In this document: piece after piece, positions 2 through 16,370 of the stretch
Layout: each line of letters begins with the position of its first letter
Numbering within the stretch: position 1 is the first letter of the stretch
Assembly (NCBI GenBank): GCA_045644765.1
Contig: JAZRHM010000001.1
Coordinates: 58,022-122,021, forward strand
DNA: 64,000 nucleotides
Origin: Alphaproteobacteria bacterium
GTDB lineage: Bacteria; Pseudomonadota; Alphaproteobacteria; RF32; CAG-239
Direction of reading: 5' to 3'
Program-made: the position numbers and the translations under genes
The notes under the pieces: generated by a model
Databases searched by the model: none
The model's input: only the letters and a program-made list of their open reading frames with translations
What the model was told of the DNA's origin: nothing

Positions 2-1249
2 TATTTAAAAGAACTTAATTTATCAGGCGAAGATGATGCTTGGCTCAAGTCAAACATAAGATTACAAAGGTTTGAAAATCGTAATTATGCATTAATTGAA
101 GCTCTTTACTATAAGCTTATCAGTTATGATTTAAGAGAGCATAACGTTTCAGAATATGCACGTATGAAATATAATAAACCATTGGTTGCCCCGTTGGCAG
201 AATATGAGTTTATAAGTGATGTCGATAAGATAGGTTCATATTGGAAAAACACGTTTAATTGGGCTTCTGTTTACCATGAAGGTAATAATTTATCACATAG
301 ATTTACCATGATAAATTCGTGGAATTTACCATGGATAAGTCCTTTCGGTGAACGATATAAAATTATGGCATCAGTTAAATCAGATGCATATTATGTTGAC
401 GGATATTCCGAAGTTGGCACAAATAGTGATTACTCAGGTGATGTCATAAGAGTTTTTCCTCAATTAGGAATTGAATGGAAACTGCCTTTAGTTAAAGCGA
501 CTGACACTTCAAGACAAATTATAGAACCTATAATTGTTGGTGTATTAGCTCCTAATGGCGGGAATAAAACAAATAAAATTCCTAATGAAGATAGTGAAGA
601 TGTCGATCTTGATGATACCAATATACTTGAGTTGGATCGCTACTCAGGATACGATCGTAATGATAGTGGTAGTCGTATAAGCTATGGTCTGAATTGGAGC
701 TCTTACGGAAACATTATGGGAAGAACTTCTGCTTTTGTTGCTCAAACATACCATTTTAATAAAAACAGCAGTTTTGCAAAAAGTATTGAAAGCGATGGAC
801 ATTTATCAGATTATGTGGGAAGAATTTATGCTGCACCTTCCGATAATTTGGATTTAAATTATCGTTTTCGCTTAGATAAAGATAGCTATAAGTTACAATA
901 TAGTGAGCTTGGTGCTAGAGTTGGAAACGATTTATTGAATATGTATGTTTCGTATATATATTTACAAAAAAATAAAAATGCTACAGAACTGTTTGATAAG
1001 AGAAAAGAGTTGTACACTTCCGTGAAAGCTTCTTTAACGAGAGATTGGTCCGTTAGTATATATAACAGACAAGATTTATCCGGCTCAGGAAAATCGTTGG
1101 AACATGGCGGAAATTTAATATATGAAGATGAATGTTTTAAGTTTATAACTACTATGAAAAAATATAATTCAAACGATCCTAGTTTAGATAACAATTATGA
1201 ATTTAACTTTACCTTTTATCTTAAAACATTAGGTGGCGTCGGAGCATAA
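2..1249 (+). CDS. lptD: LPS-assembly outer membrane protein LptD, C-terminal part (frame open to window edge; 5' end lies outside window)
   Basis: Frame of the 164..1249 ORF has no stop back to position 2. Aromatic-rich beta-strand-like sequence. Immediately followed by surA and rsmA, the conserved lptD-surA-(pdxA)-rsmA order. Confidence 0.6.
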   Translation, partial: YLKELNLSGEDDAWLKSNIRLQRFENRNYALIEALYYKLISYDLREHNVSEYARMKYNKPLVAPLAEYEFISDVDKIGSYWKNTFNWASVYHEGNNLSHRFTMINSWNLPWISPFGERYKIMASVKSDAYYVDGYSEVGTNSDYSGDVIRVFPQLGIEWKLPLVKATDTSRQIIEPIIVGVLAPNGGNKTNKIPNEDSEDVDLDDTNILELDRYSGYDRNDSGSRISYGLNWSSYGNIMGRTSAFVAQTYHFNKNSSFAKSIESDGHLSDYVGRIYAAPSDNLDLNYRFRLDKDSYKLQYSELGARVGNDLLNMYVSYIYLQKNKNATELFDKRKELYTSVKASLTRDWSVSIYNRQDLSGSGKSLEHGGNLIYEDECFKFITTMKKYNSNDPSLDNNYEFNFTFYLKTLGGVGA

Positions 1250-1252
1250 ATT

Positions 1253-2452
1253 ATGGGAGAAAATAAAATGTTAAGCGTTTTCAGTTTGTTTGCGGTTGTT
1301 TTAATATCTGCTTCTTCTTTTGCACAAACATTTGATGCAAATATGGTTGACGCAGCAGCCAGAAAATCAAAATCTGATTCTATCATGTTCAAACAAGACA
1401 GTTATGAAGAAGAGATGCAAAGAAGGGCATATGAAGAAGAGATGCAAAGAAGAGCCTATGAAGAAGAGATGCAAAGAAGAGCTTATGAAGAAGAGATGCG
1501 TCGTCGTGCTGAATATGAAGAAGAGATGAGAAAAAAAGCCTATGAAGAAGAGATGCGTCGTCGAGAAGAGGCTCTAAGGCCTGTCAATTTGTTTGGAAAC
1601 AGTGTTAAAATTTTTGCAGAAGTAAATGGAGAAATTATTACAAGCAGTGATATGCAAGATAGAGTTAACGCTTTTGTCGTTACCACTCAGATACCTGTAA
1701 ATGACCAAACAAAAAACATGATTATAGAAAAAGTTTTACAATCTGCTATTGATGAAAAACTTAAATTACAAGAAGCTCAGAAAAATTCTATAAAAATTTC
1801 GCCTGAAGAATTAGACGTCGGTATGGTAAATTTTGCTAAATCAAATAACATATCTGTTGAACAGCTAAGACAAGTGTTAAAAAAAGCTCAAGTAAACGAA
1901 GACGTATTTCGTTCGCAAATGAAAGCTGAGATGGTTTGGTCTCGTTTAGTTCAGAAAAAAGCTGCTCAAAATGCCATAATATCCAGAAATGAAATTAAAT
2001 CTGCTATGGAAACAATGGAAAAAGATATACAAAAACATAAGTTTTTAGTTTCTGAAATCGTAATTTCGAAAGAAAAAGCAAAAGGTATTGAACAATTAGT
2101 TGAAAATTTACGCCAAGATCCCAGATTTGAATTATATGCGATGCAATTTTCTGAAGGTTTAAGCGCTAAAAATGGTGGTCACATTGGCTGGGTAAATAAA
2201 GGACAACTGACAGAACCGCTTGATAAAGTCCTTCTCAATATGAAAGAAGGAGAAATATCAAATCCAATATTGTTAGGAAAAAATTACTACATATTGAAAT
2301 TAGAAAAGGTTTATGTTCCCGGATCTGATAAAGCGCCTGTTGTAGAGGAGGCACAAGTGCGTAAGATGCTTGAAAATAAAAAAATTGAAGAAATTGCTGA
2401 GAAATACATTCGCGATTTGAGAAATAAGGCTATTATAAATCGTAAGGCATAA
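1253..2452 (+). CDS. surA: Periplasmic chaperone/peptidyl-prolyl isomerase SurA (single C-terminal parvulin domain) with an inserted YEEEMQRRA tandem-repeat segment
   Basis: Signal peptide MLSVFSLFAVVLISASSFA. C-terminal parvulin-like block GGHIGWVNKGQLTEPLDKVLLNMKEGEISNPILLGKNYYILKLEKV. Position between lptD and rsmA. Alternative start at ATG 1268. Confidence 0.75.
   Translation: MGENKMLSVFSLFAVVLISASSFAQTFDANMVDAAARKSKSDSIMFKQDSYEEEMQRRAYEEEMQRRAYEEEMQRRAYEEEMRRRAEYEEEMRKKAYEEEMRRREEALRPVNLFGNSVKIFAEVNGEIITSSDMQDRVNAFVVTTQIPVNDQTKNMIIEKVLQSAIDEKLKLQEAQKNSIKISPEELDVGMVNFAKSNNISVEQLRQVLKKAQVNEDVFRSQMKAEMVWSRLVQKKAAQNAIISRNEIKSAMETMEKDIQKHKFLVSEIVISKEKAKGIEQLVENLRQDPRFELYAMQFSEGLSAKNGGHIGWVNKGQLTEPLDKVLLNMKEGEISNPILLGKNYYILKLEKVYVPGSDKAPVVEEAQVRKMLENKKIEEIAEKYIRDLRNKAIINRKA
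1405..1566 (+). repeat. 27-bp coding tandem repeat (about 7 units, tatgaagaagagatgcaaagaag[ag]gc[ac]) inside surA encoding (Y/A)EEEM(Q/R)RRA
   Basis: Direct reading of DNA and protein: EEEMQRRAY x4, then EEEMRRRAEY, EEEMRKKAY, EEEMRRREEA. Confidence 0.85.
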
Positions 2453-2453
2453 G

Positions 2454-3284
2454 ATGGACTTTAAATTATCACTTAAGAGTACGGTTGAAAAATATGACCT
2501 TATGGCAAAAAAATCGTTAGGTCAGAATTTTTTGTTAAACCAGAATATTCCTGATAAAATTATCAGATGCTCTCTTGAAAAACAAAGTTTAAAAGATTTT
2601 CAAGATAATGATGTTTATGAAATTGGTCCCGGTCCGGGTGGCCTGACAAGAGCCATAATAAGCAACAATCCTAAAAAACTGACGGTTGTTGAAATGGATC
2701 ATCGTTGTATACAAATTATGGAAGAGTTGAAAAATGAGGCAAATGTAAACATGGATATAATCAATGATGATGCATTAAAAACAGATTTTTCAATTCTTGA
2801 AGGTAAAAATAAGCAGATAATCAGCAATTTACCTTATAATATATCAGTTCCCTTGCTTATCGGTTGGCTTAAAAAAATGCAACATTATCAGGGGTTGACT
2901 TTAATGTTTCAAAAAGAAGTTGCAGAGCGTATTTTATCTCCTATAAAAACTAAAAACTATGGCAGAATTTCTGTTTTGGCTCAATTATGCGCAAAAGTTG
3001 AAAAATTGTTTGATATTAGTCCGGAATGTTTTGTACCTGCACCAAAAATTTGGTCAACTGTTTTATTGTTTCAACCCTCAGATGATATCAAAGATGCACA
3101 AATTATGGAAAAAGTTGAACTTCTAACCGAAAAAGCATTCGGACAACGTCGTAAGATGATCAGACAGAGCTTAAAATCTATTGCAAATATTGATAAGGCA
3201 TGTGAAGTTGCCGGAGTTAATATGACAATGAGAGCTGAAGAAATCAGCCCTGAGCAATATTACAAAATCGCAGAAAATATATAA
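2454..3284 (+). CDS. rsmA: 16S rRNA (adenine1518/1519-N6)-dimethyltransferase RsmA/KsgA
   Basis: LGQNFLLNQNIPDKII and SAM-binding EIGPGPGGLT motifs. 276 aa. Directly downstream of surA. Confidence 0.9.
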   Translation: MDFKLSLKSTVEKYDLMAKKSLGQNFLLNQNIPDKIIRCSLEKQSLKDFQDNDVYEIGPGPGGLTRAIISNNPKKLTVVEMDHRCIQIMEELKNEANVNMDIINDDALKTDFSILEGKNKQIISNLPYNISVPLLIGWLKKMQHYQGLTLMFQKEVAERILSPIKTKNYGRISVLAQLCAKVEKLFDISPECFVPAPKIWSTVLLFQPSDDIKDAQIMEKVELLTEKAFGQRRKMIRQSLKSIANIDKACEVAGVNMTMRAEEISPEQYYKIAENI

Positions 3285-3289
3285 AAAAA

Positions 3290-4111
3290 CTATAAACTCA
3301 AACTCTTAAGTAATGCTATTTCTTCTTTCCAACCGTTTAGTTCATTAGGTGTTTCTAAAATAAAGGGCAAGTGTTTTAATTTCGGATGATTGATAATATT
3401 TACAATAGCTTCAAGTCCGATTGTTCCTTTACCGATTTGTTCATGCCTGTCTTTACGAGAGTCAAACGGCATTTTGCTGTCGTTAAGATGAATTGCTTTT
3501 AATTTGTTTAAGCCGATAATATTGTCAAATTGTTCTAAAACAGAATCGAGCTTATTAACAATATCATAGCCGGCAGAATACACATGACATGTATCTAAAC
3601 AAACACCAACTTTTTCTTTTAAGTGAACATTTTCCATAATTTGTTGAAGATCTTCAAAAGTAGAACCTACTTCGCTTCCTTTACCTGACATAGTTTCAAG
3701 TAAAACGGTAGTCGTTTGCGTTGGTGTTAAAATTTTATTTAATAATGCAGATATTTTTTCTATGCCGATTTGCACACCTTGCCCAACGTGACTACCCGGA
3801 TGAAAATTGTAATAATTGTGAGGGATTAGTTCCATACGTTTTAAATCATCAACAAAAACTAATTCGGCAAATTCGGCAGTGTTAGAGTTATCTGAACAAG
3901 GATTAAGAGTGTACGGAGCATGTGCTACAATTTTTTTATCAGGATAGACTTTCAAAAATTCTTTTATATCTTCCAAATCTAAATCTTTTGCTTTAGAGCC
4001 TTGCGGATTGCGTGTAAAAAACTGAAATGTATCAGCATTAATGGAAATGGCATTTTTTGCCATTGATACAAAACCTTTGGAAGAAGAAAGATGACAACCT
4101 AATTTAAGCAT
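3290..4111 (-). CDS. nfo: Endonuclease IV (AP endonuclease family 2)
   Basis: [13 protein letters not shown] start, [40 protein letters not shown] metal-binding motifs. Confidence 0.9.
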
Positions 4112-4239
4112 AAAAACTCCTTTCTGAAATTATATTAACAGTATAATATCATAAAATAAAACATCTATATTTTTTTGCGTTTTATTAAAAAAAGACTTGT
4201 TTTAAAAAAATATTGATGTATAAGCAATGAATAGTATAT

Positions 4240-4316
4240 CGGATTGTAGTTCAGCCTGGTAGAACGCTTCGTTCGGGTCGAAGAGGTCGCTAGTTCGAAT
4301 CTAGTCAATCCGACCA
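4240..4316 (+). tRNA. tRNA-Pro (anticodon CGG)
   Basis: Hand-folded cloverleaf. Acceptor CGGATTG/CAATCCG. D-stem GTTC/GAAC. Anticodon stem CTTCG/CGAAG with loop TTCGGGT. T-loop TTCGAAT. Discriminator A plus encoded CCA. Confidence 0.85.
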
Positions 4317-4326
4317 AATAACAAAA

Positions 4327-4349
4327 GAGCACCCTCGTGGTGCTCTTTT
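4327..4349 (+). terminator. Rho-independent terminator after tRNA-Pro
   Basis: Stem gagcacc/ggtgctc with 5-nt loop followed by TTTT. Confidence 0.6.
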
Positions 4350-4368
4350 GTTATTTGATTTTCGGGCT

Positions 4369-4470
4369 CTAGGTTCGAACTAGCGAGAAAGCTAGTTCGC
4401 ACTTCAAGCGAAAGGCGGACTTTAAGACGCCGGTGCCATAAGGCAGATGTGACGAAGCGGCGAAAATAAT
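4369..4470. repeat. Palindromic repeat element, copy A (RPE/MITE-like, about 100 bp)
   Basis: Head taggttcgaactagcgagaaagctagttcgcacttcaagcgaaaggc contains a perfect hairpin cgaactagc/gctagttcg. Shares head and tail (gaagcg..cgaaaataat) with copy B at 7674..7782. Confidence 0.55.
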
Positions 4471-4484
4471 TCGGTAAAAAATAG

Positions 4485-5384
4485 TTAAGCTTTGAATGTT
4501 TTTAGTAATTTCAAAAAATATGGGGATGGATTATCTTTGTTTAGGGCTAAGCCATAGCCGATGTAGCACAAAGCCATATAATCAAGTTGTTTTAGCTCTA
4601 TTTTTGAAGTTGTCAATTTGTTATATTCCGTCAGCGTATCAATCGCCAATTTGCGGTCAACTTTGTAAAGCGGGAAAAAATCCTGATATTTGGGCATAAT
4701 AACCATGTTTCCAAAGTCAATAATGCCGGCGAGAATATCATCGCTTTCGGGATTGAGTAACAGATTAGAGCCGCTTAAATCGTTGTGGCACAGTGCTTTA
4801 TCGGTATTTGGCAAAGTCGGTTTATTGTAATCTAAATCAATTTTATGTGGCAATAAAGCTTCTCTGACACTGGCATAATCAAAATCTTCTCTTGTGCTAA
4901 CGTCCCAATTATCAATAGCCTCGGTCGGCTCCGGCATATTTAGCTTTTTATAATCAATTTGGTGCATTAAATGAAAAAACATCGCTAAATCTTGCGCCAG
5001 TTTAAGCTGTCGCTCCGGTATAATATTTTGATATAAAACGGCATAGTCGCTTTCCGGACGTCCGTCACAAATTTTACCATATATACGCTTTGAAACAGAA
5101 AACGGATAAGTGCCGTCAATCAGTTCAATTTTGTGGATCTTACCCTCAAAATACGGCATTAAATGCGGATAAATCGTATCAATTATCATTTTTTCGCGTT
5201 GCATCGTCTGCCAAATTATTTCCGCTTTCGGAAAGCGCACAATATAATCGTCGGCATAATATGCAACCGAACGCGAACCGCTTTGTAATCGAGTAATCTC
5301 CTTAATTCCTTTAAAACCGCTATCAGCCAAAATTTTGCGGATTAAATCAAGATTATCAGCCGTCTCTTTCGTTATATATGTCAT
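4485..5384 (-). CDS. Phosphotransferase of the APH/choline-kinase fold (aminoglycoside phosphotransferase-like), substrate unknown
   Basis: YIVRFPK (beta3 lysine), HNDLSGSNLLL (compare APH(3') HGDLGDSNIFV catalytic loop), IIDFGNM (DFG). Confidence 0.6.
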   Translation of the reverse strand: MTYITKETADNLDLIRKILADSGFKGIKEITRLQSGSRSVAYYADDYIVRFPKAEIIWQTMQREKMIIDTIYPHLMPYFEGKIHKIELIDGTYPFSVSKRIYGKICDGRPESDYAVLYQNIIPERQLKLAQDLAMFFHLMHQIDYKKLNMPEPTEAIDNWDVSTREDFDYASVREALLPHKIDLDYNKPTLPNTDKALCHNDLSGSNLLLNPESDDILAGIIDFGNMVIMPKYQDFFPLYKVDRKLAIDTLTEYNKLTTSKIELKQLDYMALCYIGYGLALNKDNPSPYFLKLLKTFKA

Positions 5385-5637
5385 ATTTGTCCTCTTACTT
5401 CACTTGTATAGCTATATCGCTTAAAAAATATAAAAGTCAAGTTTAATTACCACGTGGACAGTGTATTTCATTGAAAAACAATAAAAAAATTATTACCACA
5501 CCTAGTGGGCGGTGAACAAAAGCCAACCTCACCAGTGTGGATGAGAAGGTTCGCCAACGTTAAAATAACACTTTATAAAATAATAAAAAAATTGCCTTAT
5601 CAAAAACAAGGTATTTTTTTTACAATTTAGAGGGTAG

Positions 5638-5735
5638 CAATCCGACCAACACAAGAAAACCACCTGCATGGTGTTTTTTTTGTATTCGAATTTGGTAGCT
5701 AGGACATGAACCTACGAAACATTAATTAATCATTG
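5638..5735. repeat. Degenerate duplicate of the tRNA-Pro 3' end plus downstream terminator and repeat head
   Basis: caatccgaccaa (12 nt identical to tRNA-Pro positions 4305..4316) followed by terminator-like caccTGCATggtgTTTTTTTT and ctaggacatgaacctacgaaac, resembling ctaggttcgaactagcgagaaagc at 4369. Confidence 0.45.
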
Positions 5736-5764
5736 TTGTGATATAAACAGTCATCAGATCACAT

Positions 5765-6703
5765 TCAATCATATAAACGATTCATATTACCTGTTTTGAG
5801 ATAATGTTGCATTGCCATATTTTCATCAATCTTACGTATTACCACACCGGGATTTTTATCAATTTCATCTGTTTTATTAGGCCAGTAATCATAAGGTGTT
5901 TTACTGTTTAAAAAATCACTGGCTCTCTGTGCAGCGGCTTCGATGTCTTTATCATCGTTAACAGTATAAACTCTTAACAAATGAAGAGCTCTTCCGGGAT
6001 AAGTTGTTAAAAAATCCAAATCAAGCTGCTCGGCTTTAGGAAGATCTTTTCGGCAACGAAGCATATAATCTACAAAATACTCTGCAGCATTTTCTACTCG
6101 ACCTTTATTATTATCAAATCCCTCATTATGTAAATTTTTATTTATTAGCAAAACTACTTTGCTTTTGCGTTTCAGGGCTTCAACAATTTCTGTTATGGCA
6201 ACTTTTCTGCCCCCCGTGCATACAAGGACATTAGATGCATTTGCTGTTGCTTCAGCATATGTTTCGGTGTCTTTGAAAACATGGATTGGAGTTTTTACAT
6301 ATTGCCTCATATTGATATCTTTATTAAAACCGTTAAAATCCGTATTTTCCCAGTATCTATCTGTAGTAAAATATGCTACATTTTCTGCGCCTAAGCCACT
6401 AATTTGCGTTGTTATATCATAAATTGATCCGTCTGCCACGGCCGGAGTTGTTATATATCCGGTATTTTTTGATCCTAAGTTTTTATCTAATGATTTAATA
6501 AATTTGGTGGTTACATCTTTATATCCTTCTTGATCAAAAGAATAACCCGATGTAGCAATCCTATATTTTTTATCACCTATGCCGGATTGTAGAATATCTG
6601 TAATGTCAGCTGTGTCATGGTGCACTAATTTGCAATCTTCTTTTGAGAAGTTGCCTAACAAATTAGCTTTCATTTGCTCTATTCTATCTCGGATAGAAAC
6701 CAT
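5765..6703 (-). CDS. Hypothetical protein; possible LOG/SLOG-like Rossmann segment (weak)
   Basis: 312-aa ORF. Segments IATSGYSFDQEG and NVLVCTGGRKVAITEIVEALKRKSKVVLL loosely resemble the Gly-rich loops of LOG/SLOG Rossmann proteins. No confident family assignment. Confidence 0.35.
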   Translation of the reverse strand: MVSIRDRIEQMKANLLGNFSKEDCKLVHHDTADITDILQSGIGDKKYRIATSGYSFDQEGYKDVTTKFIKSLDKNLGSKNTGYITTPAVADGSIYDITTQISGLGAENVAYFTTDRYWENTDFNGFNKDINMRQYVKTPIHVFKDTETYAEATANASNVLVCTGGRKVAITEIVEALKRKSKVVLLINKNLHNEGFDNNKGRVENAAEYFVDYMLRCRKDLPKAEQLDLDFLTTYPGRALHLLRVYTVNDDKDIEAAAQRASDFLNSKTPYDYWPNKTDEIDKNPGVVIRKIDENMAMQHYLKTGNMNRLYD

Positions 6704-6884
6704 ATTATATCCCCATTTATAAATCTTTTACTAAGTATATATCAAAATTTTATTTTTGTCTACATAAAAAATAATTATTAATAATCAGTACATATAATAT
6801 AAAATTATGATGTTGACAGAAAACAAATTACATGTTAGCATTGTGACAAATGATATGCTATTATTTGTCGAAAAGGAGAGAAAA

Positions 6885-7598
6885 ATGACAGCAGCAAGAC
6901 ATATTTCAATTAATGAAGCATTAAAAATGTTTGAAGGTGATGTTATGGAAGCAATTCCGACAGACAGAAAACGTATTGTTATCCCTGCGTTCGGTTTTGC
7001 AGGCGCAGAACCACATGAGCGTTTGGAATGGAGAGCAGATGGGACTTCTTTTATGGAAGATGTTAAAGGTTTAGCCTTTTTGAATCCTAAAGATGCAGCT
7101 GAAGGTCAAACAACACCTAATCAAATTTTGAAACAAAAAGATGGTGTGTTGCTTTGTTATGATGCTCCCGGACGTAAAGAGCAAATTGAAGGATATATAG
7201 CTACGCATCCGAATACATTTGACAATGCTGTTCGTTTGAAGCATTTTATTAATTATTTGACAAACGATGTTCTCAGCCAAGGTGGAGAAAAACCTGACTT
7301 GTGGGATTCTGATACGGCATTTGCTGCCAGTTTACGTGATGCTCCTGCTAAAGAAGATATCAAGCCCGGTATGGTATTCTCAAGTGTTAAGAAAAAAGAA
7401 GTTGTGCAAGCAATCAGAGTGCCGGAAGGTGTAACCTTTACAGGAACAGACGGACAACTTAAAAATGCTAAAAAGGGTGGGGCTTATATCATTAAAGATT
7501 CTGCCGGTATGAGGCTTATTCAGAGTGATGAATTTCCTAAAGCTTATCAGGTAATTAGAATGCCTAAAATGATGACTAAGGAACATGTAAAAGAGTAA
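6885..7598 (+). CDS. Hypothetical protein (no recognisable family); locally higher GC than its surroundings
   Basis: Strong RBS aaggagag 5 nt upstream of ATG 6885 (MTAARHISINEALK...). The track ORF starts at 6807 in the same frame. Divergent from the 5765..6703 gene. Confidence 0.5.
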   Translation: MTAARHISINEALKMFEGDVMEAIPTDRKRIVIPAFGFAGAEPHERLEWRADGTSFMEDVKGLAFLNPKDAAEGQTTPNQILKQKDGVLLCYDAPGRKEQIEGYIATHPNTFDNAVRLKHFINYLTNDVLSQGGEKPDLWDSDTAFAASLRDAPAKEDIKPGMVFSSVKKKEVVQAIRVPEGVTFTGTDGQLKNAKKGGAYIIKDSAGMRLIQSDEFPKAYQVIRMPKMMTKEHVKE

Positions 7599-7628
7599 TT
7601 ACTTATTCTTAAAGTTTAAGACAAAAAA

Positions 7629-7654
7629 CCTTACCGGTGTGGTAAGGTTTTTTT
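7629..7654 (+). terminator. Rho-independent terminator
   Basis: ccttacc-ggtgt-ggtaagg followed by TTTTTTT. Confidence 0.65.
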
Positions 7655-7673
7655 GTGTTGAATGCATTTGCAT

Positions 7674-7782
7674 TAGGTTCGAACTAGCGAAAAAGCTAGT
7701 TTGCACTCCAAACGAAAGGCACACGGAGGTGTGCCGGTCGGCAAAGCCGATGAGCGCCGAGCATGTAGCGAAGCGAAATAAT
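7674..7782. repeat. Palindromic repeat element, copy B
   Basis: taggttcgaactagcgaaaaagctagtttgcactccaaacgaaaggc ... gtagcgaagcgaaataat. About 85% identical to copy A in head and tail, with a different middle. Confidence 0.55.
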
Positions 7783-7958
7783 CTGCTTAATCCGGACTAA
7801 ATTTTACAAAACGCCAAAATCACATTCTTTTATTATCAATTTATTGTTATAATTGCATAATTTATAAAAATCTTTTTCTACTGATTTTTAGATAATTTCC
7901 CTCAAATTATTTGACTTTTACTTAAAAAATTTATATTCAAAAATACAAGGAGTGTAAT

Positions 7959-8465
7959 ATGAAATTAAAGAAAATTAGCACTGAAAAAGATGTGGAAATT
8001 GTTAGAAGTTTTTTCTATGATATATTTTGGGAAGAAGTTGATTACGATTTAATCCATTTCAAAGATTCAATAACCAAAAATCATAATTTTCAGCGTCTGG
8101 AATATTATTTAGGGTATGAAAACAATAATGTTGTTGGCATATCTGGTATATACGCAAATAATGCAAATGAATGTTGGTTAGGGTGGTTTGGTATAATACC
8201 GGAATATCGTCGCAAAGGCTATGCCTCAGCAATGATTAACTTGCAGTTAGAAATGATGAAAAATTACGGATACAAGCTATGTCGTCTTTATACTAATGAA
8301 GTTATCAATAAGGTTGCTGTGCAGTTGTATACAAAAATAGGATTTCAAAAAGATTCTGATTATGAAAATCATATAATAACAATGTTTAAACCACTGAATG
8401 ATGATACATATATTTCAAAGTGGCAAGGGATACCCTTAGGTTTTGTTCCGGAAGTGCCGATATAG
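7959..8465 (+). CDS. GNAT family N-acetyltransferase
   Basis: 168 aa. Acetyl-CoA binding motif RRKGYASAM and YTKIGFQKD. Confidence 0.7.
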   Translation: MKLKKISTEKDVEIVRSFFYDIFWEEVDYDLIHFKDSITKNHNFQRLEYYLGYENNNVVGISGIYANNANECWLGWFGIIPEYRRKGYASAMINLQLEMMKNYGYKLCRLYTNEVINKVAVQLYTKIGFQKDSDYENHIITMFKPLNDDTYISKWQGIPLGFVPEVPI

Positions 8466-8578
8466 TTCACAGATTACAAGATGCCGCTGTTCGACAAGTA
8501 ATATCAGGCAGACGGAAGTATGCCGGTGTCGTAAGGCAGATATAACGAAGCTATAATGAAAATTGTAGCTTTGCTATA
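8464..8578. repeat. Palindromic repeat element, copy C (5'-truncated at the GNAT stop codon) ending in hairpin cgaagctataatgaaaattgtagctttg
   Basis: tagttcacagattacaag...caggcagacggaagtatgccggtgtcgtaaggcagatataacgaagc aligns to the copy A tail gacgccggtgccataaggcagatgtgacgaagc. Confidence 0.45.
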
Positions 8579-8589
8579 GGGAAAAGAAA

Positions 8590-8682
8590 ATGACTAATAT
8601 TAACATGGAAATATCTGTTGCTGATATGAGTTCTAATGTTCAACATATACAAAAAGTAATTAAAGGAAGAAAAAAACATTAG
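8590..8682 (+). pseudogene. Frameshifted 5' fragment duplicating the start of the 10370..10714 gene
   Basis: About 90% nt identity to 10370..10462 (atgactaatattaa[c/a]atggaa...). One-A deletion in the poly-A tract (a7c versus a7cc) gives a stop at 8680. Confidence 0.55.
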
Positions 8683-8802
8683 AAATTGATATATATGGTC
8701 AGAATATTTTGTAGTTTAGTTCTTAATGAAATTTTTAAAATGCTTAAATATTTTTTTACTTTCCAAAGGTTATGTTTTTTTAGCCAACATAAAGGAAGAA
8801 AG

Positions 8803-9579
8803 ATGAGAAAATTCGGATTTAAATTTTTCAGTACTAATTTTCAAACAGCACCGGAAACTATCACAGAGTGTGCGGAGTTTGCGTTATCAAAAGAAGATGT
8901 TTTTATGGAATTTACGGCTGTTACAGTTACAACAAATGAAGAATTTAAGAAAATAAAAGCAGCCATAGGTAATATTGAAGTTCGTATCCATGCTTCATAT
9001 GACGGATTTGATGCCTCAAATAGTGAATTATTTCAACGAAATAAAAAAATTTTAGCATCTGCACAAAAAGCTGCTGATATATTTGATGCCAAAACCATTG
9101 TTGTTCATGCCGGCTATGGGCATAGCAAAAAACATTTAGAAGAAGCTGCCAGACAATTTAAATTGTTTAACGATGAACGTATTGTAGTAGAAAATTTGCC
9201 GTATTATGATAATAACGGCGATGAAATGCTTGGCAATATGGCTGATGAAATTGCTTATATAAGAAATGAGAGTAAATGCGGTTTTTGTTTTGATTTTTCG
9301 CATGCCATATGTTCGGCAGCTGCTCAGAAGTTGGATGTTGATAAATACTTACAAAGCTTATTTTTATTGAAGCCGACAGTTTATCACATGTGTGATGGCA
9401 ACATACCTGAAATGAAAGATTTACATTTGCATTTTGGTGAAGGAAATTATCCGCTTAAACATTATTTAAATAATTACACGGATGAAAATGCTTATATAAC
9501 AATGGAAACAGGAAACGGTTTCGAACAGAGTAATGATTTAAGGATAAAAGATTATAACTATTTGAAAGCAATGTTGTAA
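8803..9579 (+). CDS. Xylose-isomerase-like TIM-barrel (AP endonuclease 2 fold) protein, probably a sugar-phosphate isomerase/epimerase
   Basis: Motifs TIVVHAGYGHS, VVENLP, CFDFSHA, HLHFGEG. Start chosen at ATG 8803 with RBS aaggaag; the track ORF begins at 8686 inside the duplicated fragment. Confidence 0.5.
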   Translation: MRKFGFKFFSTNFQTAPETITECAEFALSKEDVFMEFTAVTVTTNEEFKKIKAAIGNIEVRIHASYDGFDASNSELFQRNKKILASAQKAADIFDAKTIVVHAGYGHSKKHLEEAARQFKLFNDERIVVENLPYYDNNGDEMLGNMADEIAYIRNESKCGFCFDFSHAICSAAAQKLDVDKYLQSLFLLKPTVYHMCDGNIPEMKDLHLHFGEGNYPLKHYLNNYTDENAYITMETGNGFEQSNDLRIKDYNYLKAML

Positions 9580-9718
9580 ATTTAAGCATTTATAATATTT
9601 TGCATACCAGATAGCATAAATTTTGTTTTTTATATAAAATGTCGTTTTGAAAACGACCAATTTGATAAAAATAAATAGTAAAACTTTTTTGTAATATTTT
9701 TTTATAAAGGAATGAGAT

Positions 9719-10312
9719 ATGAAAAAAAGTTTATTATTGGCAAGTGTTGCCTTTTCTATATTTACTACAAATGTTAATGCTATAGAACTAAAACCTTATA
9801 TCGGTTTTGATTATGTATATTCTAATGCTTCAACAAATGATGTGGTGGTCCAAGATGTTTTGGTTGGAAAAGATTTATATGAAAATAACTTTCATTCTTT
9901 AGGTATCAATGTTGGTACTTCTATAAATGATTATTTTGACATTGAAGCTTTTTACCAAAAATCAGCTGATGCTGAAGGGGATGTTGTAGCTTTAGTTGAT
10001 GGCTCAAACGTATATACCGATAAAATAAAAACAAGTTTCTATGCTTATGGTGTTGATGCTATCGGACATTTGCCGTTAAGTGAAAAATTTACTGCGATTG
10101 GTTCTGTCGGTCTAGGTCAATATGAATTTGAAATGAACGGATTTGGAGTAACAGCAAATGAAAATGGTTTAGGTGTTCGTTTAGGAATTGGTGTACAATA
10201 CAAGATTAATGAACATTTTGCTCTTCGAACGATAGCGCGTCAAACTCTGCTGGATATGGATTCTGTTGATAATATGACAGATTTTTCGGTTGGTTTTAGA
10301 TATAGTTTTTAA
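9719..10312 (+). CDS. Small outer-membrane beta-barrel protein (OMP_b-brl/OmpA-like barrel)
   Basis: Signal peptide MKKSLLLASVAFSIFTTNVNA. Alternating hydrophobic strands. C-terminal GFRYSF with terminal Phe. Confidence 0.6.
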   Translation: MKKSLLLASVAFSIFTTNVNAIELKPYIGFDYVYSNASTNDVVVQDVLVGKDLYENNFHSLGINVGTSINDYFDIEAFYQKSADAEGDVVALVDGSNVYTDKIKTSFYAYGVDAIGHLPLSEKFTAIGSVGLGQYEFEMNGFGVTANENGLGVRLGIGVQYKINEHFALRTIARQTLLDMDSVDNMTDFSVGFRYSF

Positions 10313-10324
10313 TAACATTAAAAT

Positions 10325-10361
10325 GCGAAGCTATAATGAAAAATTGTAGCTTCGCTATAGG
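10325..10361. repeat. Repeat tail hairpin, copy D (gcgaagctataatgaaaaattgtagcttcgc)
   Basis: Perfect 9-bp stem. Same element tail as 8546..8578. Directly upstream of the intact copy of the duplicated gene. Confidence 0.5.
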
Positions 10362-10369
10362 AAAAGAAA

Positions 10370-10714
10370 ATGACTAATATTAAAATGGAACTATCTGTTG
10401 CTGATATGAGTGCAAATGTTCATCATATACAAAAGGTAATTAAAGGAAGAAAAAAACCATTAGAAATTGAGATATATGGTCAGAAAGTTTTGTTTGTTTA
10501 TGATAATATTGAAATGCATGTATCTATAAAAGATATTAATACAAGTAATAATATAATACTTGCCAAGTATGTATTAATCAATCCATTATCGCTATTTAGC
10601 TTAATTACAAAATATAAAAAGTATGATTTTTTTAAAATATCATTTGAAGATATAGGTTTAAGGATAATGATAGATAATACTGTTTTTAGCTTTTGTGCTA
10701 AAAAAGTTATGTAA
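10370..10714 (+). CDS. Hypothetical protein (intact paralog of the 8590 fragment)
   Basis: 114-aa ORF, MTNIKMELSVADMSANVHHIQKVIKGRKKPLEIEIYGQK... Confidence 0.5.
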   Translation: MTNIKMELSVADMSANVHHIQKVIKGRKKPLEIEIYGQKVLFVYDNIEMHVSIKDINTSNNIILAKYVLINPLSLFSLITKYKKYDFFKISFEDIGLRIMIDNTVFSFCAKKVM

Positions 10715-10804
10715 AATGTATTGATATAAAAACAATCATACGTTAGCATGTTCAGATAATGTTTAAACAGACCTGTTAGTTATTCAGATAATAAATATGA
10801 GTAG

Positions 10805-11362
10805 GTGTTAAAGGGTTTTCAGATGATTAATTTAATTAGTTTTTTTAAGAAATGCAAAGATGAGAAAAATGACAATATATCTATATTGCACGATTTAGTA
10901 TCCGAAGCAAAAGTGTATGTGAAAAAGAATTTTTGCCCTTGGGAAGATGATGATTATCCTGAGGTAACAGAATTTTATCAAATATCGTACGATGGTATTT
11001 TAGAAGATGAAGATTTAGAGCCAAGCTTTTCACAAATGCTTTTTAAGTTTATAAAACAACGAGGAATATCTGAAACAGATTGTTATAAAAATGCAAATAT
11101 TGATAGAAAATTATTTTCAAAAATAAGAAGCGATGATGAGTATCAGCCTAAAAAAACAACCGTTTTTGCATTTATTATCGGTTTAAAATTAAATTTGGAC
11201 GAAGCCAAAAAATTATTGGAGTGTGCAGGATATTCTTTATCCCACAGTAAAAAACAAGACATAATAATAGAATATGCAATCAAAAAACAAATTTATAATA
11301 TAAACATGGTTAATGAAATTTTATATACTTTAGAATGTCAAACTTTAGGTAGTAAAGAGTAA
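10805..11362 (+). CDS. Hypothetical protein, possible helix-turn-helix segment
   Basis: 185 aa. RGISETDCYKNANIDRKLFSKIRSD loosely fits the XRE-type HTH pattern. Confidence 0.35.
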   Translation: MLKGFQMINLISFFKKCKDEKNDNISILHDLVSEAKVYVKKNFCPWEDDDYPEVTEFYQISYDGILEDEDLEPSFSQMLFKFIKQRGISETDCYKNANIDRKLFSKIRSDDEYQPKKTTVFAFIIGLKLNLDEAKKLLECAGYSLSHSKKQDIIIEYAIKKQIYNINMVNEILYTLECQTLGSKE

Positions 11363-11426
11363 AATTTTCCAATAAGAATAATGTATTATAAAAATTCCCC
11401 ACTGTTCAAAGTGAGGGATTTTTGTT

Positions 11427-12704
11427 TTATAAATCTAAGCTTCTTTTTCTTATTTTTTCAGAAACTCGTTCCATAAAATTATCTAAAGAAACATTGTTTA
11501 TCTGCTGTCCATCTCTTAATCGAACGGAGATATTGTTATTTTCCACTTCTTTATCGCCTACAACAACAATATATGGAATTTTTTTCTTAACAGCATCTCT
11601 AATTTGATAAGAAATCGTATTACCGGAAATATCAGCTTCTGCACGTATATCATTTTCTGACAATTGCTGTTGAATCTGAAGAGCTACACTTTGGTGCCTG
11701 TCAGATATTGGCAAAATTTTAACCTGAACAGGTGATAACCAAACCGGTAATTTACCTTCGCATTGTTCCAGATAAACACCTATAAAGCGTTCGATAGAAC
11801 CTAAAATTGCGCGATGTAACATAATCGGCACATGCTTTTGTCCGTCTTCGCCGATGTAGAACATTCCCCACTTTTCCGGTAAATTTAAATCAAGTTGTAT
11901 CGTCATACATTGCCATTCTTTACCGTTTTTATCGATTGCTTTAACATCTATGGCCGGTCCGTAAAACTTTGCTCCTCCGACATCTATATCATATGGAATG
12001 TTTTTATCTTTTAACACTTGTTCGACCGATTGTTCTGCCATCTGCCAAATCGGTTCATTATCAATATATTTATCTTTTTTATCTTTCAAATCTCTGATAG
12101 AAAAATAAACTTTGAATTTATCATAACCAAAAACTTTATTGACGGCAAAACCGAAATCAAACACTTTTGAAAGCTCTTCCATGAATTGATCTTGGCGACA
12201 GATGATATGAGCATCATCTTGCGTAATTGAGCGAACACGTAACAAACCTTGCAAACCGCCCGATGCTTCATAACGATAAACATTTCCTAATTCGCAATAT
12301 TTAATCGGAAGCTCTTTATACGAATGTATGGAAGAATTATAAATTGCCACATGAAAAGGGCAACTCATCGGTTTAACATAATAAGCGCCCTGCTCTTCTT
12401 TGTCTTTTAACGACATATCCATTGGCGGATACATACAATCGGCAAAATGTTCCAAATGGCCGGATTTTTCCCATAACTGTTTTAATCCGACAACCGGAGA
12501 ATATACATATTTGTATCCTGCTTTTTGATGTTCTTTTTTCCAAAAAGCTTCAATTTCGTTTCGTATAATTGCACCGTTAGGATGCCATAAAGCCAGTCCG
12601 GAACCTATATAATCGTTGAAAGAAAATAAATCTAACTCTTTACCGATACGACGATGGTCGCATTCGGATACACTTTGTTTTTCATCTATATTAATGTTAT
12701 TCAT
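11427..12704 (-). CDS. thrS: Threonyl-tRNA synthetase, catalytic plus anticodon-binding domains only (N-terminal TGS/editing region absent)
   Basis: DHRRIGKELDLF (E. coli ThrRS residue ~243), MSCPFHVAIY, RVRSITQDDAHIIC, HRAILGSIERFIGVYLE. In-frame stop 11 codons upstream of the Met. Only 439 bp of non-coding DNA upstream. Confidence 0.8.
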   Translation of the reverse strand: MNNINIDEKQSVSECDHRRIGKELDLFSFNDYIGSGLALWHPNGAIIRNEIEAFWKKEHQKAGYKYVYSPVVGLKQLWEKSGHLEHFADCMYPPMDMSLKDKEEQGAYYVKPMSCPFHVAIYNSSIHSYKELPIKYCELGNVYRYEASGGLQGLLRVRSITQDDAHIICRQDQFMEELSKVFDFGFAVNKVFGYDKFKVYFSIRDLKDKKDKYIDNEPIWQMAEQSVEQVLKDKNIPYDIDVGGAKFYGPAIDVKAIDKNGKEWQCMTIQLDLNLPEKWGMFYIGEDGQKHVPIMLHRAILGSIERFIGVYLEQCEGKLPVWLSPVQVKILPISDRHQSVALQIQQQLSENDIRAEADISGNTISYQIRDAVKKKIPYIVVVGDKEVENNNISVRLRDGQQINNVSLDNFMERVSEKIRKRSLDL

Positions 12705-12770
12705 CTTTTTAACCTTTACTAAAATTGCTAAACTTTAAATTTCAAATTGCTTGTACGGATTTAAAATCCG

Positions 12771-12806
12771 GAAAAAAATAAACATCACCGCACTTAAGCG
12801 GTGGTG
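12771..12806 (-). terminator. Rho-independent terminator (minus strand)
   Basis: Minus strand reads caccgcttaagtgcggtg followed by atgtttatttttttcc. Confidence 0.45.
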
Positions 12807-13143
12807 GTTGTGGTCAAGGTTAAAAACACACAAAAAGACGCAGAACTTTCATTCAAGTTCTGTTGAAAAGATTGTAAAAAAATGTCTCTTTCGTTTAACA
12901 TGGGTTCATACTTAACATAATTTTGAACTTTTGTCAATTTATTTTTTTAATAAAAACACAATAGTCATCACTCTCTGAGGCATTTATATCAAACGAGTCA
13001 AAGGGGATACAAGATGTGACCTTATATATTTATTTGTTCCACCCACAAAGAAAGGTGATAATCGTTTTATGTCATATAGCTGAACTGCAAAAAACAATGC
13101 CGGAATTTATAACTCCAGCATTGATTGTATTAAATGTTATAGT

Positions 13144-14313
13144 CTAACAAAATTCTTTTAAGCGTTTTACGGCTTCTTTTATGTTTTCTTCCGAACAAGC
13201 ATAGCTTAGTCTGATATAATCAGGTGCACCGAAAGATGCACACGGAATTACGGCCAAAAGCTTTTCTTCCAAAATCTTTTTAGCAAATTCATCTGATGTC
13301 ATGCCTGTTTTTGAAATGTTACACATTACATAAAATGCACCTGCCGGTTCAACAAATGTCAAATTGTTTACATCTTTTAACAATTCGCAAATCAGTTTTT
13401 TGCGTTTGGCAAAAGCTTCAACCATTGTATTAACTTGTTCGTCAGCTTTCCCTTGTAAAGCAACAACGCCCGCATATTGCACAAAAGATGTTGCATTACT
13501 TGTGGAATGGCTTTGCAAAGCACTTATACGTTTGGTAAGCCAAAGAGGAGCTGTTAAATAGCCCAAACGCCAGCCCGTCATGGCATATGCTTTAGAAAAA
13601 CCGTTGACCGTGATGGTAAGCTCTGCAATTTTATCATTAAGGCTTGCGATACTGATATGTTTATCTTCAGGATTATATATCAGCTTTTCATAAATTTCGT
13701 CTGATAAAACCATAATGTTGTTTTTAACGGCAACATCTGCAATCATCTCCAAAGTGTCGCGAGAATATACAGCACCGGTCGGATTGTTTGGAGAATTACA
13801 AATAATCAGCTTTGTCTTAGATGTTACGGCTTTTTCCAAATCTTCTCTAACCGGTTCAAAATTGTTTTCGGCAGCAGTGTTTACCACGACAACTTTGGCT
13901 CCGCTTGCGCTTATCATCTCAGGATAAGAAAGCCAATATGGAGCAAACAAAACAACTTCATCATCTTTTCCGCACAAAGCCGCAATTGCTTGAAATAAAG
14001 CAAATTTAGCTCCGGTTGAAATTACAATGTTAGCAACATCTGTTTTTATGCCGTTACCGGCAAACTTTTTTACAATCTCCTTTTTAAGTTCAGGCAACCC
14101 TGATGCTGCCAAATAGCGAACTTTACCATCGTTGATTGCCTTGATACATTCGTCTTTTATGGCTTTAGGTGTGTCAAAATCGGGTTCACCGGCTGTCATG
14201 GAACAAATATCGGCACCACTTGCTTTTAGTTCTTTAGCTTTAGCCGAAATAGCAAGTGTTGCAGAAGGTTGCATTGCTCCCAACGGACTAAAATTTTCTT
14301 GTAAATTTTGCAT
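13144..14313 (-). CDS. aspC: Aspartate/aromatic aminotransferase (class I PLP enzyme)
   Basis: PLP-lysine motif SKAYAMTGWRLGY. NPTG. 389 aa. Confidence 0.85.
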   Translation of the reverse strand: MQNLQENFSPLGAMQPSATLAISAKAKELKASGADICSMTAGEPDFDTPKAIKDECIKAINDGKVRYLAASGLPELKKEIVKKFAGNGIKTDVANIVISTGAKFALFQAIAALCGKDDEVVLFAPYWLSYPEMISASGAKVVVVNTAAENNFEPVREDLEKAVTSKTKLIICNSPNNPTGAVYSRDTLEMIADVAVKNNIMVLSDEIYEKLIYNPEDKHISIASLNDKIAELTITVNGFSKAYAMTGWRLGYLTAPLWLTKRISALQSHSTSNATSFVQYAGVVALQGKADEQVNTMVEAFAKRKKLICELLKDVNNLTFVEPAGAFYVMCNISKTGMTSDEFAKKILEEKLLAVIPCASFGAPDYIRLSYACSEENIKEAVKRLKEFC

Positions 14314-15144
14314 TTAATTTACTCCCGTTGCATCAACTTTATATGGTCTGCTGGTTGCAGCTTCTGCTTTAGCATCAGGCAAAGCCACACTCAAAACAGA
14401 ACCTTTATTTTTAAGCAAAGCTTCCGATATCACACAAACGCTTGTACCTATACCATAATTTGTGCGTCCCTTTCCGGATATGATGGTCATACCATATTTT
14501 TTAACAACTTCAGCAATTTCTTCTTTATCGGCAGGCGTAAACGGAATGTTTTTTGATGCGCAATAATCTTCAATGGATAAACCTGAAATTTTTACACTAT
14601 CCCAATCTACAACTTGCGAATCTCCATGTTCTCCGATAACAAATCCCTTAATGTTGGCAACCGGTTCATTAAACCTGTCTGATAAAACACTGATAAGTCT
14701 TGATGTATCTAATGCACAACCGCTACCATAAATTCCTTTTACCGGAGCTGTTATCATTTTTGCCAGCTCATTGGTCAAAACATCAACCGGATTAGAAACA
14801 ACCAAAATAAAAGCTTTGGTATCTGTCTGATTTATCTGTTCTGCAATTGATTCCATAATTTTTATGTTTTTATTTAATAAATCAAGTCTGCTTTCGCCCA
14901 CTTTACGTCCCAAACCTGCCGTGATAACAATCAAATCACTATCTTTACAATCGGCATAACTTCCGGCTTTGAGACGTGTTTTGCTTAGACCTTCAAAACC
15001 TTGATTTATATCTGCAACTTCGGCTGCAACCAACTCTGCATTGATATCAATAAGAGCAATTTCATCAGCCACTTCTTTTAACATTAATGCATATGCACTG
15101 GTCGAACCGACAAAACCGGCCCCGATAATCGAAATCTTACTCAT
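14314..15144 (-). CDS. mdh: Malate dehydrogenase, LDH-like type (Arg at the substrate-specificity position)
   Basis: IGAGFVGSTSAYAL NAD fold. ITAGLGRKVGESRLDLL aligns to LDH GANQKPGETRLDL with Q102 replaced by R. VIGEHGDSQV. Confidence 0.7.
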   Translation of the reverse strand: MSKISIIGAGFVGSTSAYALMLKEVADEIALIDINAELVAAEVADINQGFEGLSKTRLKAGSYADCKDSDLIVITAGLGRKVGESRLDLLNKNIKIMESIAEQINQTDTKAFILVVSNPVDVLTNELAKMITAPVKGIYGSGCALDTSRLISVLSDRFNEPVANIKGFVIGEHGDSQVVDWDSVKISGLSIEDYCASKNIPFTPADKEEIAEVVKKYGMTIISGKGRTNYGIGTSVCVISEALLKNKGSVLSVALPDAKAEAATSRPYKVDATGVN

Positions 15145-15159
15145 ACAAAGCTCTCCAAA

Positions 15160-15957: not shown

Positions 15958-16111
15958 ATTTTTATCCTTTTAATAAAAAATTATTCCAAATAGTAAAGTT
16001 ATCTTACTTAATGCTTTTTTTAATGTCCAAACACGATAAATTACGAATTATTACATTGTAAACATATTTATACCAACTATTTGTAAATAAACACAAAAGC
16101 AGCTAAAAAGA

Positions 16112-16140
16112 CAAAAAAAAACCGGAGAATAAACTCCGGT
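16112..16140 (-). terminator. Rho-independent terminator downstream of tRNA-Leu(CAA)
   Basis: Minus strand: accggag-tttattc-tccggt followed by TTTTTTTTT. Confidence 0.55.
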
Positions 16141-16147
16141 TAAACTT

Positions 16148-16233: not shown

Positions 16234-16370
16234 ATCTGGTTGTTAAGGGATACATATACCATTTATTTTATACAGTCAACACTTTTTTACGTTTTTTTAT
16301 ATTTTTTGTGTTTCTTTTTTGTAAGAAATGATGTATAATTGCGCCAGTTTGTTAAAATCGGGAGCCGATA

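Follow-up and report, generated by a model that had tools for sequence, protein, structure and literature searches.

An islet at the 3′ end of a tRNA-Pro gene in an alphaproteobacterial contig, probably built by successive insertions, and a folded repeat unit that copies tRNA ends

Islands that form beside tRNA genes by repeated integration are known in Prochlorococcus as tycheposons (bioRxiv 10.1101/2020.12.28.424599). Here we describe an islet next to the tRNA-Pro(CGG) gene of an Alphaproteobacteria bacterium, lying in a 64,000-nucleotide stretch of contig JAZRHM010000001.1 (positions 58,022 to 122,021; the whole stretch is called the window). In it, a gene for an APH-fold phosphotransferase (the kinase) is found between the tRNA and a second, partial copy of the tRNA 3′ end, amongst copies of a repeat unit, R, whose arms copy the end of the tRNA. 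With the tycheposon-type islands the locus shares an intact tRNA at its edge, scattered partial copies of that tRNA, outward displacement, degraded elements and varying cargo, and it is a new example of this known kind of tRNA-proximal accretion island. It differs from them in three respects: the window has no integrase (amongst the open reading frames, ORFs, scanned) or replication module; the commonest unit is ~180 nt, non-coding and has a folded scaffold; and the cargo is found in a secondary copy of the tRNA end, with a 3-nt overlap, rather than in the tRNA itself.

Three further groups of described systems bear on this locus. Elements carrying a large serine recombinase (LSR) occupy the same tRNA ends in relatives, with junction repeats of 7–10 nt, but no LSR gene is found amongst the scanned ORFs of the window and the ends of the kinase segment are unlike the element ends at two of these loci (L114 and L141). 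R also resembles integron cassettes and their attC sites, CTX-phi and other integrative mobile elements exploiting Xer (IMEX), in that recombinase-less units stand in tandem and inverted copies would fold, as a single strand, into a target-like duplex. In contrast to these, no IntI or Xer-type site has been identified here (no IntI-like ORF was seen amongst the scanned window ORFs), and R imitates the T-arm and acceptor of whichever tRNA it adjoins, changing with the tRNA. Finally, a scaffold with target-matching flanks that vary from site to site is reminiscent of the bridge RNA of IS110 and the omega RNA of TnpB and IscB. However, there is no IS110, TnpB or IscB gene beside ~25 distinct R loci, the Rfam search gave no match of R to omega-RNA or HEARO, and the head and tail of R are complementary to each other, unlike the arms of a bridge RNA.

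Our best explanation is that the islet, from 4317 to ~8550, probably grew through one site-specific insertion after another, at the 3′ end of tRNA-Pro(CGG) and at the copies of that end which earlier insertions had left. The inserts would be of two kinds. The R units (hairpin plus R, ~175–190 nt) would bring a tail that copies the tRNA from A58 to CCA, so that the older tRNA end is pushed downstream, where it decays. The cargo segment, ~2.1 kb with a pair of APH-family kinase genes and a ~250-nt upstream block, would have entered an R tail at ..GTCAA/TCCGACCAA, overlapping by 3 nt; before this, the unsplit (empty) site is expected to have read ..AATCTAGTCAATCCGACCAA... In the window strain a later deletion or recombination would then have taken out the second kinase gene along with the proximal tail half and joined the kinase stop codon to the first repeat, R1. 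The order of these events is inferred.

The starting point is the repetition of the tRNA end (Table 1). The 12-mer CAATCCGACCAA has exactly two exact occurrences in the 64 kb, both on the + strand: one at the end of the intact tRNA, at one boundary of the kinase region, and the other at 5638–5649, at the opposite boundary. The first consists of the 3′ strand of the acceptor stem, the discriminator, CCA and one extra base. The exact match described in an earlier note on this DNA is therefore confirmed, but it comprises the last eleven bases of the tRNA plus one beyond its end, not twelve tRNA bases. When one mismatch is allowed there are four matches against 0.21 expected; the two imperfect ones look like chance, because both fall within coding sequence. 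The likeness noted over the ~85 nt downstream also holds. The DNA following the two 12-mers aligns with a local score of 24, compared with 13.2 ± 2.2 for shuffled sequences (3 of 1000 shuffles reach it), which is above chance yet modest. A hairpin does follow each 12-mer (T1 at −28.4 and T2 at −12.9 kcal/mol), whilst the repeat head reported behind both hairpins is well preserved after T1, with only a degenerate, shortened version (CTAGGACATGAACCTACGA) remaining after T2.

The repeats are not confined to this region. R1, which with T1 in front of it makes up repeat unit 1, consists in order of a head (an inverted copy of the tRNA T-arm, the reverse complement of 4287–4303 with one mismatch), a loop, a direct copy, GCTAGTTCG, and the scaffold hairpins. 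Its head, TAGGTTCGAACTAGCGA at 4370–4386, occurs again at 7674–7690 in R3, a complete unit whose tail is a degenerate tRNA-Pro end (AATCTGCTTAATCCGGACTAA, 7780–7800) and is followed by a GNAT gene. The series thus runs past the coordinates originally flagged, at 7667–7800 and 8480–8551, and the islet reaches at least ~8550. The copies of the tRNA end decay with distance: exact at 5638, with several changes at 7780–7800 and none recognisable after R4. This gradient fits newer inserts displacing older ones outward, as in other tRNA islands.

Further evidence is provided by other contigs; protein and locus searches put the window amongst low-GC metagenome-assembled genomes labelled Alphaproteobacteria, from gut and rumen, and all comparison sequences are metagenome assemblies. 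Two contigs of the same species, L152 and L153, are 99.2% identical to window 6731–4552, and L152 has the same T2, 12-mer and upstream block. Beyond the kinase, L152 carries a second APH/choline-kinase gene (302 aa) that is absent from the window, and past this gene is an R scaffold whose end, ..GCGGCAAAGCCAATCTAGTCAA, runs straight on into GTGGGGAG... The proximal half of a tail, reading ..GCCAATCTAGTCAA, is therefore on the far side of the kinase segment, with a CAA overlap. At the junction with the second APH gene the tail reads ..AATCTAGTCAA, and at the other edge the segment ends ..GAGGGTGG and is followed by CAATCCGACCAA. Excising the 2082-nt segment together with one CAA rebuilds GCCAATCTAGTCAATCCGACCAA, an R tail as found in L008, the nearest species representative. 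Because of this match, the second 12-mer in the window appears to be the distal half of an R-unit tail split by the kinase-pair segment and not the far end of an element integrated in the tRNA. The 3-nt overlap, reconstructed from L152 plus the window, would be compatible with a serine recombinase but is non-specific. In the window strain both the second kinase gene and the proximal half-tail are absent. The 3′ edge of R1, where its tail would be, reads ...AATAAT/TCGGTAAAAAATAG, and the stop codon of the kinase is joined through 14 nt to R1 just past ..AATAAT; we read this left junction as a probable secondary deletion.

L008 (nfo 84% identical in amino acids) retains the divergent nfo/tRNA-Pro pair, but the kinase is missing from this orthologous locus; comparison with relatives had been proposed in the earlier note. 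In place of the kinase it has four copies of the tRNA end, two R units and unrelated small-gene cassettes. Along the tRNA strand, the tRNA is followed by a hairpin, a repeat and a 19–20-nt copy of the tRNA end. A second unit comes next, with hairpin and repeat 93% identical to window 4298–4434, compared with 78% in the flanking nfo region; near-identical copies of T1 are found in this unit and in an insertion in L094 described below. Beyond the units are unrelated small genes on the opposite strand, each after a block homologous to window 5420–5664, and this block is joined to ..GGGGTAG/TCAATCCGACCAA by the same junction as in the window. From this order of genes and copies, the tRNA-Pro flank appears to accumulate differing cargo between tRNA-end copies, and the notion of a site-specific insertion hotspot at the tRNA 3′ flank is supported. 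The small genes of L008 (6388–9460) form three paralogous cassettes, in each of which a conserved block (D1/D6/D7) stands upstream of one or two small ORFs; a hairpin terminator (D2) is common to all three. One ORF has a signal-peptide-like N-terminus, and an 88-nt direct repeat, beginning within the tRNA-end copy, borders two of the cassettes.

The far side of the insertions can be placed with a more distant relative, L141, where R and an intact Pro tail are followed by the orthologous GNAT gene (71% nucleotide identity). On this basis, R3/GNAT is probably the oldest boundary, the GNAT gene would be the ancestral neighbour of the tRNA-Pro/R unit, and the DNA from 4317 to ~7660 would be inserted material. 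The window's own species yielded no true empty site, and several same-species contigs end in this region. L088 (99% identity to the window) breaks off precisely at 4317, where the tRNA core ends; L152 and L153 end at 6731; and L126, which is 98.2% identical over 6785–9620 and, like L153, agrees with the window where it overlaps, ends at 6785. These ends suggest strain variation, or assembly breaks induced by repeats, at the tRNA core and in the intergenic region between orf312 and orf263.

The kinase has the catalytic motifs CHNDLSGSN and IIDFGN, so the APH catalytic loop and DFG reported for it are present. The 1.3-kb bracket does hold this gene as stated, but not this gene alone: R1 and a conserved non-coding block of ~220 nt (5420–5637) are there too. 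The family is widespread in the lineage, with 221 matches, and relatives at 92, 91, 89, 74 and 69% amino acid identity are found in five different, unrelated contexts, where the DNA similarity to the window covers the coding sequence and no more than 90 nt before it (~90 nt in L098). A second APH/choline-kinase-like gene follows in most of the other contexts. Kinase and upstream region together are 92.6% identical in DNA to L098–L100 over window 4501–5473, and the upstream region appears to move with the gene. The GC content at third codon positions (GC3) of the kinase is 0.377 compared with 0.253 ± 0.036 for 52 window genes (z = +3.5), an outlier in the composition check suggested by the earlier note; its overall GC gives z = +1.2, and orf312 and orf263 are compositionally typical. 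Since the gene is absent at the orthologous locus of the nearest species, has its relatives elsewhere and is a GC3 outlier, its status as horizontally acquired cargo is supported.

The suggestion that the kinase acts on antibiotics (aminoglycosides or macrolides) was not borne out. The closest characterised proteins are APH(2″) enzymes (E 1e-8 to 1e-13), with which the kinase shares the fold family and the HxDxxxxN and DFG motifs as seen in its best PDB and NCBIfam matches. The best PDB match has E 1.8e-8, the kinase aligns to APH(2″)-Ia (5iqh), and the best NCBIfam APH(2″) match, NF033692, scores 50 bits against a cut-off of 475. It differs from APH(2″) in scoring far under the family cut-offs and in being usually paired with the second APH/choline-kinase-like gene. 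It is thus a distant APH-fold protein with an established fold and catalytic motifs, for which a role in antibiotic resistance is unproven. Exact-protein look-ups of the window nfo product and of the kinase gave no match.

We searched for R more widely using a pattern for its scaffold, which found 48 metagenome loci, and by blastn, which found two faecal virome scaffolds; the R loci are the window, L104–L151, L008, L009, L017, L024, L056, L154 and L155. R is ~130 nt long, the unit period including the hairpin is ~175–190 nt and there are often two or three tandem units. In the gut and rumen metagenomes no fewer than 17 types of tRNA have an R behind them: Pro(CGG, GGG), Glu, Lys(CTT, TTT), Gly(GCC, CCC), Met, Arg, His, Asn, three Ser, Trp, Leu and Gln. 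In 19 distinct loci in which a tRNA was called directly before the first unit, R starts 81–95 nt downstream of the tRNA. The two tRNA-Leu genes of the window have no R behind them. All units follow one plan. A hairpin, its stem often starting in the CCA of the tRNA, is followed by an inverted copy of the 3′ portion of the tRNA, exact over 9–15 nt in most loci and over none in one. A short A-rich loop then leads to a direct copy of the 5′ strand of the T-stem plus TTCGA. Next is the scaffold, ..CAAGCGAAAGGC-hairpin-GCCGGUCGGC-hairpin-GCCGAUGAGCGC-variable hairpin, and last a direct copy of the tRNA from A58 to CCA, of which 19 nt (A58–A76) are exact in 13 of the 19 loci. From these tail copies, the scaffold appears always to be placed at the same position of the T-loop, with arms that match the adjacent tRNA.

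RNAalifold predicts three helices for R. In an alignment of 25 sequences, 96.6% of the cells are paired, compared with 86.5% when sequences are shuffled and 22–44% with the partners slid. Double changes occur in 54 cells against 16.8, and hairpins P2 and P3 covary. Some of the invariance is imposed by the search pattern, in which the covarying positions were free. An invariant G-U pair and, read by eye, GNRA-type P2 loops and some head/tail G-U wobbles suggest that R folds at the RNA level. The far-5′ part of the head pairs with the acceptor part of the tail barely better in cognate (−10.2 kcal/mol) than in non-cognate combinations (−7.5 kcal/mol). It was thus rejected as a conserved helix and treated as a decaying segment; it looks like a relic of the making of the unit.

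No described RNA family was found for R. The covariance models of Rfam 15 gave only tRNA matches, all others being at chance level, and no published description of R was found, although absence from the literature and from Rfam is not proof of novelty. A hammerhead ribozyme, considered on account of the motifs ..CGAAAGGC..GGUC..GAUGAG.., was rejected: there is no Rfam hammerhead match at E ≤ 5 and the core (CUGANGA / GAAA / UH) is out of register, with U4 missing (CGAUGAG) and two extra G before UC after P2. A tmRNA or permuted tmRNA was rejected as ARAGORN finds none. The scaffold pattern has no match in IMG/VR, blastn finds none in the PLSDB plasmids, and a 25-nt pattern of the tRNA end has no match in IMG/VR or the JGI metagenomes. 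Amongst 420 nearby ORFs, clustered in search of a protein partner, no family is common to different tRNA loci. The two virome scaffolds, labelled "Bacteriophage sp." from human faeces and unannotated (L154, MT836861.1, 1431–1700; L155, MT837473.1, 6307–6560), carry tRNA-Gln and tRNA-Met, with a hairpin and an R unit behind each. They resemble chromosomal DNA of bacteria present in virus-like-particle preparations rather than genomes of phages, and with their ordinary tRNA-hairpin-R architecture they give no evidence for a phage origin of R.

Copy number differs between close relatives. L090 and L094 encode an identical nfo protein, but in L094 a 290-nt unit is inserted exactly after the tRNA; it starts with a T1-like hairpin, ends with a 29-nt copy of the tRNA end and is followed by sequence as in L090. 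Its interior is an expanded, divergent relative of R, as in L024. In a human-gut species, the number of 189-nt units behind tRNA-Glu is one, two or three, between identical flanks, the outermost tail often being substituted (GGGAGCACCA), as expected of a displaced, non-functional copy. R-type units thus appear to be gained and lost.

As the earlier note stated, no integrase remains: the window ORFs from 164 to 17897 have no match to Phage_integrase or Resolvase. In relatives, LSR elements (DUF2924 plus Resolvase, Recombinase and Zn ribbon) are found at tRNA-Glu (L114, 8099–10236, and L137) and at tRNA-Pro (L141, an LSR fragment at 8–688). They sit at the extreme 3′ end of the tRNA, between it and the first hairpin-R unit, with their junction repeats of 7–10 nt at the position of the window 12-mer. 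The recombinase gene of L137 is cut short, with ORFs of 258 and 509 aa in the place of its 3′ part. The fragment in L141 shares 59% identity with an LSR found 2.6 kb from a kinase relative in L007. L006 and L007 are 99.5% identical to just past a kinase-GNAT pair and again from a serine recombinase gene onward. Between these, the stretch from 8015 to ~11700 and ~9500, respectively, holds differing cargo (Kiwa KwaA/KwaB in one, DUF8370/8371 in the other) and is a variable slot beside the recombinase. Given that LSRs use the same tRNA ends and that one lies near a kinase relative, a large serine recombinase acting in trans is our favoured candidate for having moved the kinase segment, although we would stop short of calling this probable. 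The LSR elements were rejected as a source of R, since that in L114 has junctions of its own (ATCACCA) and lies between the tRNA and a pre-existing hairpin-R. Candidates for the spread of R would be a recombinase acting on a small circle with 19–29 nt of tRNA identity, a folded single-strand site or an RNA-mediated process.

Other readings of the islet explain parts of these observations. A complete tRNA on one side, a direct repeat of its 3′ end on the other and a kinase of atypical composition are what would be seen if a single integrase element had entered tRNA-Pro, with the 12-mers as its attL and attR cores, and later lost the integrase; tRNA-proximal accretion with partial tRNAs is well documented, for example in tycheposons. 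We think such an origin unlikely. L152 has the proximal half-tail beyond the kinase pair, which makes an R tail the target and not the tRNA; a complete unit (T1-R1) sits between tRNA and kinase; and only 12 nt are identical, compared with the 19–29 nt left by R-type integrations. The site-specific integration at the tRNA that the earlier note envisaged is hence retained as a hotspot with acquired cargo, but the pair of 12-mers does not mark the ends of a single element. Its alternative, a decayed tandem duplication, describes a part: the units of terminator and repeat do stand in tandem. Extended to a native, vertically inherited kinase, with the second tRNA end and hairpin arising by local duplication and decay, it could point to the tandem arrays of hairpin-plus-R units and the wide distribution of the kinase family, but it is largely refuted and very improbable, given the absence of the kinase from the orthologous locus in L008, relatives of 89–92% identity in unrelated contexts, the GC3 value and the adjacency of R3 and GNAT in L141, which shows the intervening DNA to be inserted. 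Coincidence in an AT-rich genome, to which the moderate downstream similarity (reached by three shuffles in a thousand) might be ascribed, is refuted, as the exact 12-mer is at two places only and the junction of block and tRNA end recurs in L008 and L152. In favour of successive insertions there is also presence and absence amongst relatives: L008 is without the kinase, L152 has an extra APH gene, and L090 and L094 differ by one unit. Several observations weigh against successive insertions as set out here. The window has neither a recombinase nor an intact left junction, so the insertion event is reconstructed from another strain. The R copy of L152 is only ~87% identical to R1 or R4 (87.5% to R4 for the copy beside the kinase pair), although the rest of L152 is at 99%; more than a single deletion must thus separate the two strains, and recombination amongst R copies is likely to have contributed. 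The 3-nt overlap could also have been left by a transposase or by illegitimate joining. In its other contexts the kinase pair lacks conserved ends, and its standing as a discrete mobile unit is thus not established. Lastly, repeats in metagenome assemblies may be misassembled, and several contigs break in this region.

The nature of R itself allows two readings. We tentatively put forward R as a protein-less mobile or self-propagating element for tRNA ends, though the case falls short of making this probable. It would be a ~130-nt folded RNA or single-stranded DNA whose scaffold is placed between T-loop positions 57 and 58, with arms templated anew on each tRNA, and would have spread amongst at least 17 tRNA species in gut and rumen Alphaproteobacteria, making secondary sites for cargo. 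Alternatively, R may be a family of functional small RNAs that mimic tRNA and are matured by tRNA-processing enzymes, each of them retained beside its cognate tRNA, the kinase merely having landed amongst them. The covariation of P2 and P3, the invariant G-U pair, the GNRA-type loops and the 19-nt exact tail in 13 of 19 loci speak for such RNAs, but we consider this reading doubtful: R is sporadic, being missing from both tRNA-Leu genes of the window; its copy number is polymorphic, and one R-like unit is carried by one member of a species but not by another; tails that were displaced decay, as do the far-5′ segments of the head; and there is no obvious promoter, whilst a strong terminator-like hairpin precedes each unit. 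The small-RNA view and the mobility of R are compatible, since a mobile unit could encode an RNA.

Table 1 Features of the tRNA-Pro islet in the window (positions from the first nucleotide of the window)
Feature	Positions	Strand	Evidence	Remarks
tRNA-Pro(CGG)	4240–4316	+	ARAGORN; Rfam tRNA, 62.3 bits	intact, CCA encoded
12-mer CAATCCGACCAA, reference copy	4306–4317	+	exact match	at tRNA 3′ end
Hairpin T1	4315–4357	+	fold −28.4 kcal/mol	19-bp stem starting in tRNA CCA, then T-run
R1 repeat unit	4361–4479	+	nhmmer E 1.6e-27	near-complete, tRNA-like tail absent
APH-fold (protein-kinase-like) phosphotransferase, 299 aa	4485–5384	−	Pfam APH PF01636, E 3.8e-12	
Kinase upstream region	5385–5473	−	sequence reading	promoter-like TTGACT-N18-TATAGC plus ribosome-binding site
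Conserved non-coding block, ~220 nt	5420–5637		L008 homology	right end of kinase segment
12-mer CAATCCGACCAA, second copy	5638–5649	+	exact match	
Hairpin T2	5651–5683	+	fold −12.9 kcal/mol; aligns with T1	with T-run
Degenerate, shortened R head CTAGGACATGAACCTACGA	5699–5717	+	alignment with 4368–4386; no nhmmer detection	
orf312, 312 aa	5765–6703	−	no family match	inside islet
orf263, 263 aa	6807–7598	+	no family match	inside islet
Hairpin T3	7618–7656	+	fold −17.9 kcal/mol	with T-run
R3, complete repeat unit	7667–7800	+	nhmmer E 8.5e-34	
GNAT acetyltransferase	7959–8465	+	Pfam PF00583; L141 synteny	
R4, diverged R-scaffold fragment	8480–8551	+	nhmmer E 0.018	

The non-coding block at the right end of the kinase segment is 84% identical to L008 7361–7599 and 82% identical to L008 8538–8657. 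It matches no Rfam family, for which reason a T-box or riboswitch was rejected, and its position upstream of the promoter-like −35 makes a leader RNA improbable. The two further ORFs have no match in Pfam, NCBIfam, PHROG or PADLOC; an identical orf312 protein is found on the ENA contigs L152 and L153, and orf263 is collinear in L126 at 98.2%. PADLOC likewise gave no match to a defence system for the islet genes.

Other repeats were seen in the window. A SurA-like ORF (1253–2452) contains, at 1403–1563, a five-copy 27-nt tandem repeat with one 30-nt spacing, encoding repeats of the type YEEEMQRR. A duplicate of ~130 nt (8580–8712 and 10360–10493, 91–94% identical) covers the upstream region and first codons of ORFs 8686–9579 and 10370–10714. 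A second dispersed repeat of ~116–119 nt, 65–78% identical, occurs directly at 33909–34024, 40539–40654 and 61157–61272 and inverted at 60599–60727, and L013 7571–7688 also matches it. Of two nfo relatives, P0130 has a differing local order (ogt-nfo) and P0122 an unrelated context.

The locus originally flagged is ordinary, and R is moderately surprising. A kinase gene at a tRNA flank is an ordinary example of the collection of foreign genes and does not give grounds for labelling it a resistance determinant. R is the more useful result: a covarying unit that copies the tRNA from T-arm to CCA end in both orientations and supplies extra insertion sites. Should it be mobile, R would be a protein-less element with target arms rewritten at each site, bearing on how insertion hotspots form and on programmable site recognition. 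Should it be expressed as RNA, R would provide mimics of tRNA ends in abundant uncultured gut bacteria.

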